Assembly: GCA_965140785.1 (NCBI GenBank)
Contig: OZ223497.1
Span: 160,001-224,000 of the forward strand
DNA from: an uncultured Ruficoccus sp.
Lineage (GTDB): Bacteria; Verrucomicrobiota; Verrucomicrobiia; Opitutales; Cerasicoccaceae
Reading direction: 5' to 3'
Length of the DNA stretch: 64,000 bases
Below the pieces are notes generated by a model. It had not been told where the DNA came from. It saw only the letters and a program-made list of their open reading frames with translations, and searched no databases. Every line of letters begins with the position of its first letter. Within the stretch, counting starts at the first letter, position 1. The position numbers were made by a program, and so were the translations under genes. Of this stretch, positions 1,099 through 19,043 are shown piece after piece.

Positions 1099-2646
1099 TT
1101 ACGGAGTCCAGGTGTCCCCTGTGTAATCCAGCCACTTCTGCAGCTCGGTGGTTAGCTCAGCAACCACTTTCGGCTGTTCATCCGCCAGATTATGCATTTG
1201 GAACGGATCATCTTTGTTATTATATAGCCTTACAAATGGCTTATTGATATCGCGACTTTTGCTCAGTATTACGAAGGTGTATTGTTCAGTACGAACCCCG
1301 CGGCTTCCGCCGACATAAAAATTACAGTAATACGACGACTTTGGTCGTTCACCTTCCCCCGTCAGGAAACTTGAGGAAAAATCGCTGCCTTGTACCGCTG
1401 GCGGAATCTGGCTATGTAGTCCAGTCAAGCCCAGCAATGTCGGCATAATGTCCGGGGAATTAAACAGGAGGTTGTCTTTGCGTGGCGCGATTTTTCCAGG
1501 CCAGCGGACAATAAAAGGAACTCCGAAAGCTTCTTCATAAGGCTGCGGCTTCCCGCGTAGACCATGACTGGCCAACATTTCGCCGTGATCGGATGTAAAC
1601 ACAACAATCGTGTCATCTTCAATGCCTTCCTGACGTAACGTATCGAGTAGTCGTCCGAATTGTTCGTCGATTCCTGTAATCGCTGCGAAATATTCCTTGG
1701 AATATTGGGAGACCGCTGCGCCTTTTTTTGTTTTAGTGTCGATATTGGGGCGAACCAGTAGTTCCTGATCTGTTTTTCCGCTGTAGTTATCCAGATATTT
1801 ATCAGGGACCTGATCGAACGGCGGATGAGGAGGGTTATAGGAAATAAATAATGCGAACGGCTTTTGGGGGGCACGATACTTCCCGTCTGGGTTCTTAATG
1901 TACTCCACAGCAATGTCAGTTTCATGTTCCGGCGACCACTTGTTAATGGTGAAATGCTCCATGCGTGGCGTATCACGCTTCCAATAGTGTGGCGTAAGAT
2001 GCTCATCGCAGCAGCCGTAAGAATACCAGAAATAAAATCCGTGTCGCCGATCCGGTGGCGTCCACTCATCCCACCAAACAGGACCTCTTGGGGATGGGCG
2101 GGGCTTAAAGACATAGGGAGCTTGGGGTGGCTCCAAATGCCACTTTCCGATATAGCCCATGCTGTACCCGTTATCCGCCATAACATCGGAAATACAACGC
2201 TCTTCTTTATGCAGGTGATTGCCATCATCCGCAGTGGAGCGGCAGTTCATTTTTACGCCATGTGCTATTGGATATTTTCCGGTCAGCATGCTGGCACGGT
2301 GAGGACTGCAAACTGGCAATGTGCTGACTGCATCCGTCAGAACCAGACTCTCGGCAGCAAATCGATCAATATTCGGTGTGATGACTGGATCTGCATCCAT
2401 AAAACCGAGAGCCTGACGTCGGAGCTGATCCGGAAAAACATACAGGACGTTTGGCCGCTTGCCGGAAGCTTTCACGTTGGCAGCTAATCCAGTTCCTGAC
2501 AGGACTGCGGCTGATACTGCAATCGTCAGTTTTGAAAATTGCCGTCGCGTCAAAGACTGTTTCCTCAATGAGCTTTGCTGGTCGGAGGATAGAGGCTTGC
2601 TCTCTGTATTAAGTATCTCATTTGAAAGTGTCGGTATCTTTCTCAT
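1099..2646 (-). CDS. Sulfatase (formylglycine-dependent), Tat-type signal
   Basis: CSPHRASMLTG (CxPxR) signature, GKWHL and FTSDHG motifs; N-terminal RRQF twin-arginine-like signal. Confidence 0.93.
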   Translation of the reverse strand: MRKIPTLSNEILNTESKPLSSDQQSSLRKQSLTRRQFSKLTIAVSAAVLSGTGLAANVKASGKRPNVLYVFPDQLRRQALGFMDADPVITPNIDRFAAESLVLTDAVSTLPVCSPHRASMLTGKYPIAHGVKMNCRSTADDGNHLHKEERCISDVMADNGYSMGYIGKWHLEPPQAPYVFKPRPSPRGPVWWDEWTPPDRRHGFYFWYSYGCCDEHLTPHYWKRDTPRMEHFTINKWSPEHETDIAVEYIKNPDGKYRAPQKPFALFISYNPPHPPFDQVPDKYLDNYSGKTDQELLVRPNIDTKTKKGAAVSQYSKEYFAAITGIDEQFGRLLDTLRQEGIEDDTIVVFTSDHGEMLASHGLRGKPQPYEEAFGVPFIVRWPGKIAPRKDNLLFNSPDIMPTLLGLTGLHSQIPPAVQGSDFSSSFLTGEGERPKSSYYCNFYVGGSRGVRTEQYTFVILSKSRDINKPFVRLYNNKDDPFQMHNLADEQPKVVAELTTELQKWLDYTGDTWTP

Positions 2647-2797: not shown

Positions 2798-3643
2798 TTA
2801 GTCTTTCTTTGACCGCTGATTGCGAAGCAGGGCTACAACTGCGGAGAGCCCGACCAGCCAGAGCGCGGCTTGCTCTGGTTCAGGTATCTGGTGGCTGATA
2901 TCCGCTCCCTCGAAGAGGTAAACATCGTCGAGATACGCCTCGCGCGATAAGCCCGAATAGTCCGTGGAGAAGCGGAAGGTCGTCATGTCGTTGCCTCCTT
3001 CGGTATAGACCGTGGAGCCGGATACCACCGCGATGTTATTTCCCTTCAGGACTCCGTCGATCCAGATGTCGAAGGTCAGTGAGGCGACACTGTCGGAGCC
3101 ATCATTATAGGAAACCGCCGAGTTGGAGGTGTTCACCACCATGTCCACCCGGTGGAGGGTATCCTGACTGTATGCCGCAGCGAAGGTATTGTCCAAGTCG
3201 CTGAGTACACCGCCGTTGAAGGTGGCCTGAAAAGCGTAGTTTTCCCTCGTGTTATTGTTTTCCCCGAGGGTGAGCCTGAACTTGGTGCCGTTTACGGCGC
3301 TGGACTCATAGTAAAAAAAGCTCAATGTCGCCACCTGGAAGTTCATGCCGGTGGCATCCATACGAGTACTACCTGTGTTGGTCGTATCTCTGACCTGGAG
3401 GATTTTATTGCTGGTTCCCTGGCCGAAACTGTCCGCGGGGCTGAGGGGGGAGCCGTCGTCGAGCACCACGTCCAGCGTGGCATTCGTCGCGGTTGTGATG
3501 GAACTCCATTTGGGGCCGGTTAGTGGCGAGTCCGCCGTGTAGGATTCGAAATTGTCGGAGAAAAGAATGGTCTGCGCGTGGGAGATTGTGGCGGCTGCGA
3601 CCATCGTCAATACTAGGCTGGGGTAATACGTTAGTTTGTTCAT
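2798..3643 (-). CDS. PEP-CTERM sorting domain protein
   Basis: Signal peptide, beta-rich body, C-terminal IPEP + hydrophobic helix + basic tail (RNQRSKKD). Confidence 0.88.
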   Translation of the reverse strand: MNKLTYYPSLVLTMVAAATISHAQTILFSDNFESYTADSPLTGPKWSSITTATNATLDVVLDDGSPLSPADSFGQGTSNKILQVRDTTNTGSTRMDATGMNFQVATLSFFYYESSAVNGTKFRLTLGENNNTRENYAFQATFNGGVLSDLDNTFAAAYSQDTLHRVDMVVNTSNSAVSYNDGSDSVASLTFDIWIDGVLKGNNIAVVSGSTVYTEGGNDMTTFRFSTDYSGLSREAYLDDVYLFEGADISHQIPEPEQAALWLVGLSAVVALLRNQRSKKD

Positions 3644-3813
3644 AGGAAGCTAGTAAATCCTCGACCAGTTGGGGGCACAAACCCGAGCTTACGAAAACAG
3701 TTGCGTTAGATGGACGCTCCGGTCTTTGTAACTTTGTCCAGACTGCTTAACGCATCCATACGCCCTTTGGCCGCCTTCATTATAAGGCGTTCAACCGGGG
3801 GTTGAGTATGCGA

Positions 3814-5110
3814 TTTAGGTTTCCTTGTTTCTTTACAGCGACTTATGGCTTTCTGAAAAAGTTAGCTTGAAGCCGTAAGCTTTCCGTTTGTTGAGCAAGT
3901 TGGCGGGGTGGGGGAAGCTGCGAATCGCTGATCGATTAACCGCCAGCAGCAGCAAGTCATCGACTATTTGGTCGAGGTACCGAACTGAGGCGTAGCCTCG
4001 GTGACAAAGCGTAGCGCCCAAACCGTGTCCTTCGCGAGCAACTCGACATCCATGCCAAGGGCAAGCGCATTCGTTTCAACGCGAACCAACGCAGGCGCTT
4101 GGCAGAGAAAGGCCGTTGCCTGGGGCGTAAGATGCTGATGAAGATCGCGACGCTCGTGACGCCGGAGACGATCTATCGTTGGCATCGCCAATTCGTCGCA
4201 ATGGCTTATGGTCCGAAGGGCCACGATCATTCCGTAGTTCATGCGCGGCGGGCCGAGCGCAATGCGCTCATCATCAAGCTTGCGGTTGAGAACACGGGGT
4301 GGGGATACACGCGCATCCAAGGGGTGATGCAGAATCTCGGTTATCCGAAACTGAGCACTTCGACCATCGGGGAGGTGCTGCGAGAGGCTGGTATCCGGCC
4401 TTCGCCGGAGCGCGGCAGTCGCTTGGATTGGAAGATGTTCATTCGCGTTCATGCCGATCAGCTTGCTGCCACAGACTTCTTCATGGTGCCGGTGTGGACC
4501 TTGCGCGGACTGGCCATGTACCGGGTGCATTTCGTGATCGATCTGCTGACGCGAAAGGTGGAGATCACGCATATCGGTTGCCAATACTCCGGAGAGTTGA
4601 TGCTCCAAATTGCCCGGAACCTGACGGATGCGTTCGAGGGATTCCTGACCGGCAAGAAATACCTGCTGCACGATCGGGATACTCTCTTTACAAATGCGTT
4701 CCGCGAGTTGCTGCGTAGCAGTGGCACTACCCCTTTCAGGCTTCCTCCATGCATGCCGGTGATGAACGGCGGGCGCTACGCCAGCCCGCCCGGCTACGCC
4801 GAGTGCTTCGTCAAGTCGATCAAGCGTGTACCGAGCCTGCGAAGCGGCGACAAAGCGAAGCGCCTATGCCTGGCCAAGATGATTTTCTTCAGCGAGGATG
4901 CTCGTGCGGGAGGCCATCGCTCAATACGTGCGGCATTATCACCATGAAAGGCCGCATCAGGGCCGCGACAACCAGATCATTGAGCCGGACGTGGCAACCT
5001 TTCGCAATCAAGGCCCGATCCGAAAAATCGCACACATCGGAGGGCTCCTGAACCACTACTATCGTGATCCATTACCGAAAATCGAGGAAGAGGAGGGTAG
5101 GGCCGCATGA
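3814..5110 (+). mobile_element. Degenerate IS: integrase-core (DDE, IS3/IS481-like) transposase pseudogene, copy 1
   Basis: Pieces read ..LLSKLAGW / INRQQQQVIDYLVE / NRVLREQL..WGYTRIQG..ATDFF..HDRD..YAECFVKSIK..YHHERPHQG. Internal stop at 3876, four short inserts, frameshift near 4903. Homologous to 18606-19043. Confidence 0.85.
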
Positions 5111-5683
5111 GCTTTCCCGATAGTCACTTTTCTTCAAAAAATGCCCGAGGTCGATGCTCGGGTGACTCCTTCCCCATCGACTCATATGCCCTGAATCGGC
5201 AAAATCGCGGGCCTATGAGTTCGCCCTTCAACGAGCAAACGAAAGGACTGATTTTGAGTTTAGAAGCTATAGCGCTAGAACGGAGAAAATACTAGAAGTA
5301 TCTATTTATCAATTTCTTGAGAGAAATTGGTTGTCGAAATCCCTGAGTAGTGAATGCCATGTTTTACCTTCTGACCTTAATCATAATGCTATTATTGCCG
5401 CGCTAAAAAATGGAGATCGTGCGCATCGAATTCTCGATCAGAAGGCTTGGGATTTAATTCGTGAGAGAGTTCTAAAGTCGGGAGAGGCCAATGTCAGGAT
5501 CGCTTCTATTGCTTTTAGAATTGCCGGGGCACAAACAGCAGGTCCAGGTCTTGTGTCATGAACCTACGCCTGCTCAAGCCAGGCGAACTGGAGCGACGCT
5601 TGATGACGAGGGATCATTGAAAACAACGCTGTTGGACTCCTGTGCCGGGGACGGGCTTGCTTTGGGGTTCGTCGAAGTCTCGT

Positions 5684-18605: not shown

Positions 18606-19043
18606 TTTAGGATTTCTTGTTCCTTCACGGCGACTTATGATTTTTCAAAGTGAGTTTGAACCCGCAAGCTTTACTGTTGTTGAGCATGTTGGCGGGGAGG
18701 GGGAAGCTGCGAAGCGCTGACCTATGAATCGTCAGCAACAGCAAGTCATCGAGTATTTGGTCGAGGTACCGAACTGAGGCGTAGCCTCGGTGACAAAGCG
18801 TAGCGCCCATGCCTGAACAAGATGATCTTTTTAAGTGAAGGTGTTCTGCGGAAGGCCATCAGTGAATACGCGCTGCATTACCATCATGAGCGACCGCATC
18901 AGGGCCGTGATAACCAGGTCATCGAACCGGACGTGGAAACCTTTCGCGCTCAAGGCTCGATCTGAAAAATCGTACACCTCGGAGGGCTCCTGAATCACTA
19001 CTATCGCGATCCATTACCGGAAATTGACGAAGAGGAGGGCCGA
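18606..19043 (+). mobile_element. Internally deleted copy 2 of the integrase-core transposase
   Basis: MNRQQQQVIEYLVE joined via a 44-nt insert directly to CLNKMIFLSEGVLRKAISEYALHYHHERPHQG; homologous to both ends of 3814-5110. Confidence 0.85.

Follow-up and report, generated by a model that had tools for sequence, protein, structure and literature searches.

Short hairpin inserts in transposase genes and tRNA loci of Opitutales: a candidate family of micro-sized mobile DNA elements

Four inserts in a decaying transposase gene

The window analyzed here is a 64,000-nucleotide (nt) stretch of the genome of an uncultured Ruficoccus sp. of the order Opitutales (C26:160001-224000, within a genome of 4.36 Mb in 50 contigs). 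It contains a decaying copy of an insertion sequence (IS) with a single open reading frame (ORF) for a DDE transposase of the rve type, similar to IS481 and IS3, and the transposase gene is interrupted by four short segments, denoted inserts a, b, c and d (Table 1). Inserts b and d are members of a family of hairpin-bearing elements that recur in transposase genes of this genome and, elsewhere in the order, next to or inside tRNA genes.

There are 29 matches to the window IS in the Ruficoccus genome, and 10 copies were aligned; the ends given for the IS in Table 1 are approximate and mark the limits of similarity to the other genomic copies. In a three-frame translation, the reading frame of the window copy is in pieces. 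Two of the 10 aligned copies, C26:80700-81785 and a copy near C4:131445, lack all four segments, and both contain an intact ORF of 362 amino acids (aa). Because these two paralogs lack the segments and have uninterrupted ORFs, the interruption of an otherwise ordinary transposase gene is real. The original prediction, which placed four interrupting segments in this gene, was thus accurate to within 1 nt, and the alignment with intact homologs that it had called for bears out its description of them as interruptions. The 362-aa product matches the Pfam families rve_3 (E 1.1e-11), rve and rve_2, with rve_3 and rve_2 above their cut-offs, and it reaches 89 bits with the NCBIfam IS3 model (cut-off 160) and 87 bits with the IS481 model (cut-off 224), both below the respective cut-off. 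An assembly artifact was ruled out, given that the inserts vary from copy to copy, appear again in assemblies made independently and in other genomes, and have contig coverage from two sequencing runs.

That the window copy is decaying is shown by a single-base frameshift near position 4904, which is unrelated to the inserts. Further lesions were found in another insert-bearing copy of the same genome (three stops in C4:167376), and the insert-free copies are intact. Overall, insert-bearing IS copies in this genome are a degenerate minority, either deleted or carrying extra lesions, and insert-free copies are the intact majority, a pattern that fits simple gene breakage.

Table 1. Insertion sequence copies, inserts and an unrelated lesion in the window
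Feature	Position	Strand	Evidence or content
Decaying copy of single-ORF DDE IS (rve-type, IS481/IS3-like)	3803..5251	+	10-copy alignment
Insert a, 23 nt, bulged GAA-capped hairpin	3911..3933	+	absent from 3 of 10 aligned copies
Insert b, 44-nt family member	3977..4020	+	alignment with insert-free copies
Insert c, 24-nt in-frame hairpin between 4-nt direct repeats	4771..4794	+	absent from 3 aligned copies
Insert d, 39-nt family member	4828..4866	+	alignment; insert-free joint in run X4
Extra base, 1-nt frameshift unrelated to inserts	4904	+	alignment; three-frame translation; paralog contig one base shorter here
Second, internally deleted copy of the window IS	18647..19039	+	contains insert a (18701-18723) and a single family member (18766-18809)

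Insert b consists of a head, an 8-bp stem with a GTA loop, a core, a second mini-hairpin and a CCCA tail; its leading G can be counted as part of the target, so that the element proper spans 3978-4020. It replaces the AG of a GAG codon (VE-E-NR), adding a net 41 nt and shifting the frame. Insert d has a shorter, bulged stem with a GAA loop, and its tail is mutated in the window copy, where it ends in TA. It likewise replaces the AG of a GAG codon (KR-E-CL), but is in frame (net +36 nt) and stop-free. At both sites, G-AG-N in the insert-free copies corresponds to G-[43 or 38 nt]-N in the window. Independent evidence for site d comes from a related metagenome (run X4), the contigs of which lack the insert and have only AG between the two sides of the joint. 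Insert-free alleles, for which the original prediction had proposed a search in sequencing reads, are accordingly found; they correspond to the insert-free paralogs and carry no information on splicing. The expectation of a glutamate codon at b and d was also correct, GAG being present at both sites in insert-free copies, and it holds generally across the family.

The tail motif common to b and d occurs three times in the window (0.17 expected), and none of 100 shuffled sequences reached this number. For the bare heptamer GCGWAGC, the window as a whole shows no enrichment: 32 copies stand against 25.7 expected, and 11 of 100 shuffled sequences contained at least 32. What defines the family is the longer head-core-tail architecture rather than the heptamer.

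The other two inserts are less clearly placed. Insert a, the position of which is ambiguous by 1 nt in a run of G, lies directly upstream of an internal start codon; the window copy has a mutation in this codon. It has eight genomic copies, every one at the same site of the window IS family, and has in common with insert d a 10-nt bulged-hairpin core and nothing more. As predicted, the exact heptamer is present in the second copy of insert a in the window, and a version with one mismatch in the first. Judged by the common core, insert a is probably a relative of the family. Insert c, found at its single IS site only, has ends different from those of the family and contains the 11-nt tail hairpin of the family in reverse complement (4009-4019 against 4771-4781, 100% complementary); it is possibly a family fragment. 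One of the three aligned copies without insert c carries insert d. The original grouping of all four inserts in a single family thus stands for b and d, which are clear members, but not for a, with its 10-nt core, or c, with its inverted tail hairpin and different ends.

Architecture, insertion sites and distribution of the element family

Members of the family are 27-51 nt long. In an alignment of 32 members, the invariant head, GTACCGAG, is followed by a stem-loop that varies, the core CGACA and a mini-hairpin of the form AGCG-N-AGCG; the short tail closes with CA. The stem-loop changes in sequence from variant to variant with pairing retained, usually around a three-base G-N-A loop, and the flanking blocks are invariant. 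RNAalifold returned no consensus pair for the 32-member alignment, and the family model was therefore built on sequence only. Rfam scans with E-value thresholds covered the window region 3700-5300 and four related loci; neither the inserts nor the tRNA-linked units matched an Rfam family. An assignment to group I or group II introns or to small self-cleaving ribozymes was rejected on the strength of these two negative results.

Pattern and profile searches identified 22 to 25 members in the Ruficoccus genome, with length variants of 38, 39, 44 and 49-51 nt. The 32-member profile gave 25 hits at E<1, all 25 inside IS copies and distributed over at least seven separate sites. The hosts belong to at least two IS families, the window IS and an unrelated IS3-type element with OrfA and OrfB. 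The enrichment in IS genes that the original prediction had suggested looking for is thus complete among the profile hits in this genome.

The elements insert after a G, rarely a C, and replace the next two bases, AG or AA; there is no target duplication, and there are no terminal inverted repeats. Approximately 12 insert-free copies of the IS3-type element provided base-exact junctions at four more sites, three of the form G|AG in glutamate codons and one G|AA in a lysine codon. Because the G|AA junction falls on a lysine codon, the rule applies to DNA (G, A, purine) and not to the codon itself. In the Ruficoccus genome, most of the inserts nevertheless sit on a glutamate codon of a conserved DDE-transposase motif. 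The insertion sites are polymorphic among IS paralogs. The 44-nt variant is present both at an N-terminal site of the window IS and, in the IS3-type element, at a site in the catalytic core; the copies at these two sites differ solely in the middle base of the triloops. These observations show that insertion occurred at the DNA level, and support movement of the family between non-homologous sites and unrelated IS families.

The inserts also promote loss of IS sequence. In the second, internally deleted copy of the window IS, the single family member has the left flank of site b and the right flank of site d. A second, independent junction of this kind (C26:99296) joins a b-type head to a d-type tail and thereby identifies recombination between two resident inserts as the source of the internal deletion. 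Further single-insert deletion joints of the same sort were found in the IS3-type element. Thus, the inserts interrupt the host gene, and recombination between pairs of them excises the interior of the IS and leaves short derivatives. The window IS itself lies next to a sulfatase-like ORF of 515 aa (1099-2646, minus strand) and an ORF for a 281-aa secreted protein with a PEP-CTERM-like end (2798-3643, minus strand), both recognized by eye from their translations; both look like ordinary cargo for such bacteria.

The family pattern was present in four of the 41 relatives searched and, across the order, in 16 of 401 genomes; a control with the pattern reversed produced a single match apiece in three genomes. 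When a sample of 151 genomes from the class was searched with the profile, two matched, both within the order and none outside it. A loose pattern scan of all species genomes returned at least 120 loci, most of them chance matches; among the matches listed, the real members, recognized by their flanks, came from records titled Opitutales, Opitutaceae, Puniceicoccaceae or Pelagicoccus. Within the genomes searched, the family is confined to one order.

The original proposal that the unit targets mobile-element genes holds for the Ruficoccus genome (25 of 25 profile hits) but not for the order at large, where T-loops and anticodon loops of tRNA genes are also occupied. Members linked to tRNAs were found in five or more families of the order, next to genes for tRNA-Ser (three anticodons), tRNA-Arg (two), tRNA-Gln (two) and tRNA-Pro. 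The typical arrangement is a tandem duplication of the 3' piece of the tRNA, from the T-loop onward, with the element in the second copy between the G and the A of the loop; some loci contain two tandem units. These members obey the same junction rule as those in IS. One tRNA-Ser-like gene is itself interrupted in the T-loop, and ARAGORN detected no tRNA there. A 27-nt member occupies the anticodon loop of a duplicated tRNA-Ser 5' half, at G|AA. The tRNA-linked units can be old, because a sister species retains a diverged unit at the same tRNA-Ser locus; no orthologous empty site was obtained for a tRNA-linked unit, the related species that was examined having this diverged unit in its place. 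The element's head is identical in sequence to the part of these tRNA-Ser genes directly upstream of the T-loop, an identity that may hint at the origin of the family.

Two other hairpin sequences were encountered in connection with such loci. In L278 (genome G096; 1764-1800 and 1880-1950), duplicated 3' pieces of tRNA-Ser carry, besides the T-loop element, an added hairpin insertion of approximately 35 nt in the acceptor-arm sequence. Genome G047 contains a hairpin repeat of approximately 27-36 nt, first met in sequence flanking a tRNA-Ser locus; it has more than 45 hits and forms tandem arrays in which it recurs approximately every 100-115 nt (for example, C148:16-380, C156:5608-5861, C129:8044-8293 and C49:16004-16234); these arrays could be REP-like (REP, repetitive extragenic palindrome) or an unusual CRISPR-like structure (CRISPR, short palindromic repeats that are clustered and regularly spaced).

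Mobile elements or tolerated interruptions

The reading that we favor, with moderate confidence, is that the inserts represent a new family of micro-sized, non-autonomous mobile DNA elements. Such an element would be moved in trans by a recombinase encoded by the host or by an IS and acting on folded single-stranded DNA. Mini-hairpins of this type are stable in single-stranded DNA, and for this reason, together with the lack of inverted ends and of target duplications, a single-strand mechanism of the HUH type appears most likely; a Y1/HUH enzyme of the RAYT/IS200 type (RAYT, REP-associated tyrosine transposase) would be the leading, if weak, candidate for the mover. Persistence in IS copies could reflect the fact that an IS is dispensable and would multiply the element it carries. 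The original prediction of an uncharacterized mobile unit of approximately 40 nt that parasitizes mobile-element genes largely survives, given the movement between non-homologous sites, but the four inserts do not form a single clean family, and the targets include tRNA loops.

Several observations weigh against this reading, beginning with the choice of targets. Three IS reference sequences contain 142 other G-A-R sites that are unused, and the target motif is too short to account for the restriction to IS genes and tRNA loops. Predicted loops do not supply the missing specificity: the tRNA cases fall in 7-nt loops, but 10 IS targets compared with 142 control sites were not preferentially located in predicted unpaired positions (p 0.18 with RNA and 0.27 with DNA parameters), and the idea of loop targeting was rejected. 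The putative mover is a further difficulty. Homologs of Y1_Tnp are encoded in all five genomes tested, but also in six of 14 control genomes, and no enzyme was linked to the element either in the neighborhoods of six Y1_Tnp loci or at one tRNA-linked array, where the adjoining ORFs at this single locus encode a porin, a pectate lyase and a histidine kinase and no recombinase.

The Ruficoccus genome has the Y1_Tnp domain (RAYT/IS200-like) in two ORFs of 309 aa, C10:480168-480497 and C43:224747-225076. A RAYT- or IS200-type gene flanked by the motif, as originally envisaged, did not materialize at the six loci of five genomes that were inspected over approximately 1.5 kb on each side (best family E 3.1); the share of the Ruficoccus genome in this check was one of its two loci, the C43 locus being left out. 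In G047, there are 26 Y1_Tnp matches, many of them less than 500 nt from contig ends and most covering only the first half of the domain; this highly repeated gene for a Y1/HUH transposase-like protein seems to break the assembly.

Further objections come from IS copies that have recently multiplied with the inserts on board in G073 and G095, two genomes from another family of the order. In G073, an IS3-type element is present in at least 36 full-length copies that are approximately 100% identical, and all 31 copies sampled carry the same 44-nt insert, which is in frame but contains an in-frame TGA. In G095, a subfamily of nine copies with a median identity of 99.8% and a different left flank for each copy carries the same in-frame insert and a 33-nt frameshifting one. 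No insert-free copy was found among 30 loci examined in this genome, and seven other full-length hits are too long to be insert-free. The ratio of nonsynonymous to synonymous substitution rates (dN/dS) between copies that share inserts is 0.08 in the Ruficoccus genome and 0.15 in G095, yet at dS of 0.4-0.5 the inserts themselves show few or no differences. Low dN/dS combined with identical inserts is not expected of a purely destructive neutral insert, unless homing to the same sites was recent and repeated.

Other features of these copies complete the picture. Pairwise dN/dS over 13 copies is 0.13-0.44. Two Ruficoccus copies that carry b, c and d have a flanking dS of 0.44 and dN/dS of 0.08; insert b is identical in the window and in C26:132666, and d differs at two of 39 positions. 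In G095, the sequences immediately adjoining a shared insert are not the same, and hence no conversion tract is present. Two explanations fit these data: recent, repeated acquisition at the same sites, which would require efficient site-specific homing, or persistence of IS lineages under selection with the inserts in place. Against efficient ongoing homing, 24 expanded copies in G095 have intact, unused sites for two inserts, D and E, that are present elsewhere in the genome; of the inserts, A, B and C alone are found in the expanded subfamilies, and D and E occur in single diverged copies only. A second G095 subfamily of approximately 15 copies carries the same two inserts as the nine-copy one.

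The G073 copies also have a second, different insert, likewise in frame and with an in-frame TGA, located in OrfA. This insert (L182 of G073, approximately 950-990; also in L191 of G046) is 29 nt long (net +27) and located at ELEKE-N-TELKK; it is without the family head and has a tail-like purine-rich stretch in common with the family. Seven of 13 diverged IS copies (L255, L230, L231, L232, L245 and L249 of G095 and L191 of G046), including the multiplied subfamily of approximately 15 copies, have an in-frame TAG in the OrfB frame approximately 20 codons past an A6G slippery site. Either these copies are non-autonomous and mobilized in trans, or they tolerate the stop. Two IS copies, L181 (G046) and L243 (G095), are chimeric, the first two thirds coming from the insert-rich IS and the last third from another IS3-type element, similar to that of the Ruficoccus genome, which demonstrates recombination between IS families.

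The multiplication of insert-bearing copies in G073 and G095, the low dN/dS values and the identity of inserts at high dS without a co-converted flank are what one would predict if the interruption were tolerated, that is, if the inserts were mobile but skipped in expression, by ribosomal bypass or RNA removal, with the IS transposing at a throttled rate. We consider this alternative, which the original prediction had already raised, unlikely, although G073 and G095 lend it indirect support. Once the inserts are masked, neither the G073 copy nor the nine-copy (L233) type of G095 has a stop or a frameshift, and the confinement of expanded subfamilies to A, B and C, with D and E left to single diverged copies, also agrees with it. 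A possible recoding signal can be discerned in the element itself. In inserts that fall in the glutamate phase, the head reads GTA CCG, followed by the rare codon AGG (3.4% of arginine codons in the Ruficoccus genome) or an early stop. Where the tail ends in CCA, a second proline codon immediately precedes the codon with which the gene resumes. A hop from the proline codon of the head to that of a CCCA-type tail would yield Val-Pro in place of the glutamate, independent of the length of the insert; cutting and rejoining of the RNA would be another route. The conserved head, with its AGG or early stop, a Shine-Dalgarno-like purine run and a hairpin (over the early stop in the 44-nt variant), would then be the recoding signal, and an IS with several gaps would keep a trickle of transposase and go on multiplying. 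By analogy, the inserts might be bacterial counterparts of the mitochondrial byp elements and of the gap in phage gene 60, an equation that we regard as doubtful.

Several points run counter to such skipping. According to our reading of the alignments, the CCG...CCA pair is present at only five of approximately 10 simple site types and is absent with AAGACA or CTCA tails and at the lysine-phase site. A universal recoding rule was rejected: neither read-through nor Pro/Pro hopping nor frameshifting of a single sign accounts for more than part of the variants. Exact removal of an insert cannot regenerate the lost AG, so that the conserved glutamate would be changed or deleted. In the Ruficoccus genome, it is the insert-free copies that are the intact majority. 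The 15-copy subfamily of G095 with the in-frame TAG has multiplied, which shows that mobilization in trans does occur in that genome, and Rfam provided no ribozyme or intron match.

The concentration of the inserts could alternatively be the work of the host, if a cellular system wrote the cassettes into conserved transposase motifs and the copies in tRNA loops were off-target products. The IS3/rve motifs that contain all the target sites are indeed the most conserved ones, different variants strike homologous positions in different IS families, and every G073 and G095 copy that was examined bears an insert. We nevertheless regard such directed silencing as very unlikely: no candidate system was found in a search that covered Y1_Tnp only, the variable parts of the inserts show no guide-like complementarity to the flanks by eye, the D and E sites remain intact and unused in 24 G095 copies even though these inserts are present elsewhere in the genome, and the conservation of tRNA-linked units between two species of one genus is unlike off-target damage. 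It is also improbable that the family has no current mobility and consists of a few ancient insertions that were inherited vertically and shuffled among IS copies by recombination or gene conversion. Each variant does tend toward its own site across genomes, and the mosaic insert combinations in G095, G046 and G073 copies are consistent with recombination. Shuffling of this kind is, however, at odds with the presence of the same 44-nt variant at non-homologous sites of unrelated IS families, with an insert identity far above the neutral expectation at dS of 0.4-0.5 next to flanks that differ, and with the tRNA contexts in five or more families of the order.

If the favored reading, that of a mobile element family, is correct, these elements are among the smallest mobile DNA units described in bacteria, and they are unusual in replacing two bases, in their strong bias toward conserved DDE glutamate codons and tRNA loops, and in promoting internal deletions. 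The insert-mediated deletions provide a concrete route from a full IS to short derivatives, and hence to IS decay or to remnants resembling MITEs (miniature transposable elements with inverted repeats). For annotation, gene callers will report such IS genes as fragments or pseudogenes. Should the interruptions instead prove to be tolerated, bacterial chromosomal genes would provide a first case in which coding gaps are skipped in a programmed manner across a whole family, and the dozens of natural variants would make a long-isolated phenomenon testable.

Comparison with known short repeats and coding interruptions

The literature found does not describe these inserts; the lists of REPs in ORFs that supplement PMC3733652 were outside that search and may bear on the comparison with intragenic REPs. 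REPs and REPINs are 20-40 bp stem-loop repeats without coding capacity that are thought to move as folded single strands. O. terrae, a member of Opitutales, is reported to be rich in GTAG-tagged REPs, and some REPs are located inside ORFs (PMC3733652). The present elements are likewise short, non-coding stem-loop units in a genome with Y1_Tnp homologs. Unlike REPs, they lack a conserved GTAG/CGTC tag, the head starting with GTAC and the middle base of the triloop being variable; they have two separate small hairpins instead of one palindrome; they replace two target bases; and they number approximately 25 in 4.36 Mb, all in IS genes, whereas REPs number in the hundreds and are intergenic. None of them flanks the Y1 loci checked. 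Membership in the REP/REPIN group was rejected for lack of the tag, low copy number, intragenic location and the absence of flanking elements at the six loci.

Other known mobile elements also differ in their junctions. IS200/IS605 elements insert 3' of a fixed 4-5-nt target without base loss and are 100 nt or longer, and the palindrome-associated transposable elements (PATEs) derived from them are non-autonomous, carry hairpins and produce no target duplication. The present family shares these three properties of PATEs, but an IS200/IS605-type element was rejected because the bases at the 5' junctions have only the final G (or C) in common and two target bases are replaced. MITEs are likewise non-autonomous and carry hairpins, but terminal inverted repeats and duplication of the target are characteristic of them; this assignment was rejected as well, the head and tail not being inverted copies of each other and two bases being lost at every junction for which there is an insert-free reference.

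Among interruptions of coding sequences, the byp elements of Magnusiomyces mitochondria are short, mobile, translational-bypass interruptions. The bypass cassette of phage T4 gene 60 contains a hairpin with a stop or hungry codon and a Shine-Dalgarno-like run (bioRxiv 10.1101/2022.08.31.505936). Like these cassettes, the present elements are short (27-55 nt for the whole group) mobile interruptions of coding sequence, some of them with an early stop or hungry codon in a hairpin and a Shine-Dalgarno-like run. They differ in that matched take-off and landing codons occur at only about half of the site types. In the known cases, bypass has been shown by experiment, whereas for the present elements it is hypothetical; and where the gene 60 cassette travels with a homing-endonuclease element, no such element is seen here.

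Rickettsia palindromic elements (RPEs) are selfish palindromic repeats tolerated in protein-coding genes; they are 100-150 bp long, in frame, and translated as an extra peptide in many housekeeping genes. RPE-1 in a gene of R. conorii is one example (PMC3733652). The location within genes is common to RPEs, intragenic REPs and the present elements. Compared with the much longer RPEs, the latter, at 27-51 nt, are mostly frame-breaking or stop-bearing, and are found only in transposase genes and tRNA pieces. Finally, the small dispersed repeats (SDRs) of heterocystous cyanobacteria, the subject of Elhai et al. 2008, are reportedly mobile, 21-27 nt long and located in conserved hairpin contexts, with an unknown mobilizing mechanism. 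These SDRs belong to a different phylum, and the present elements resemble them in their very small size and hairpin context.

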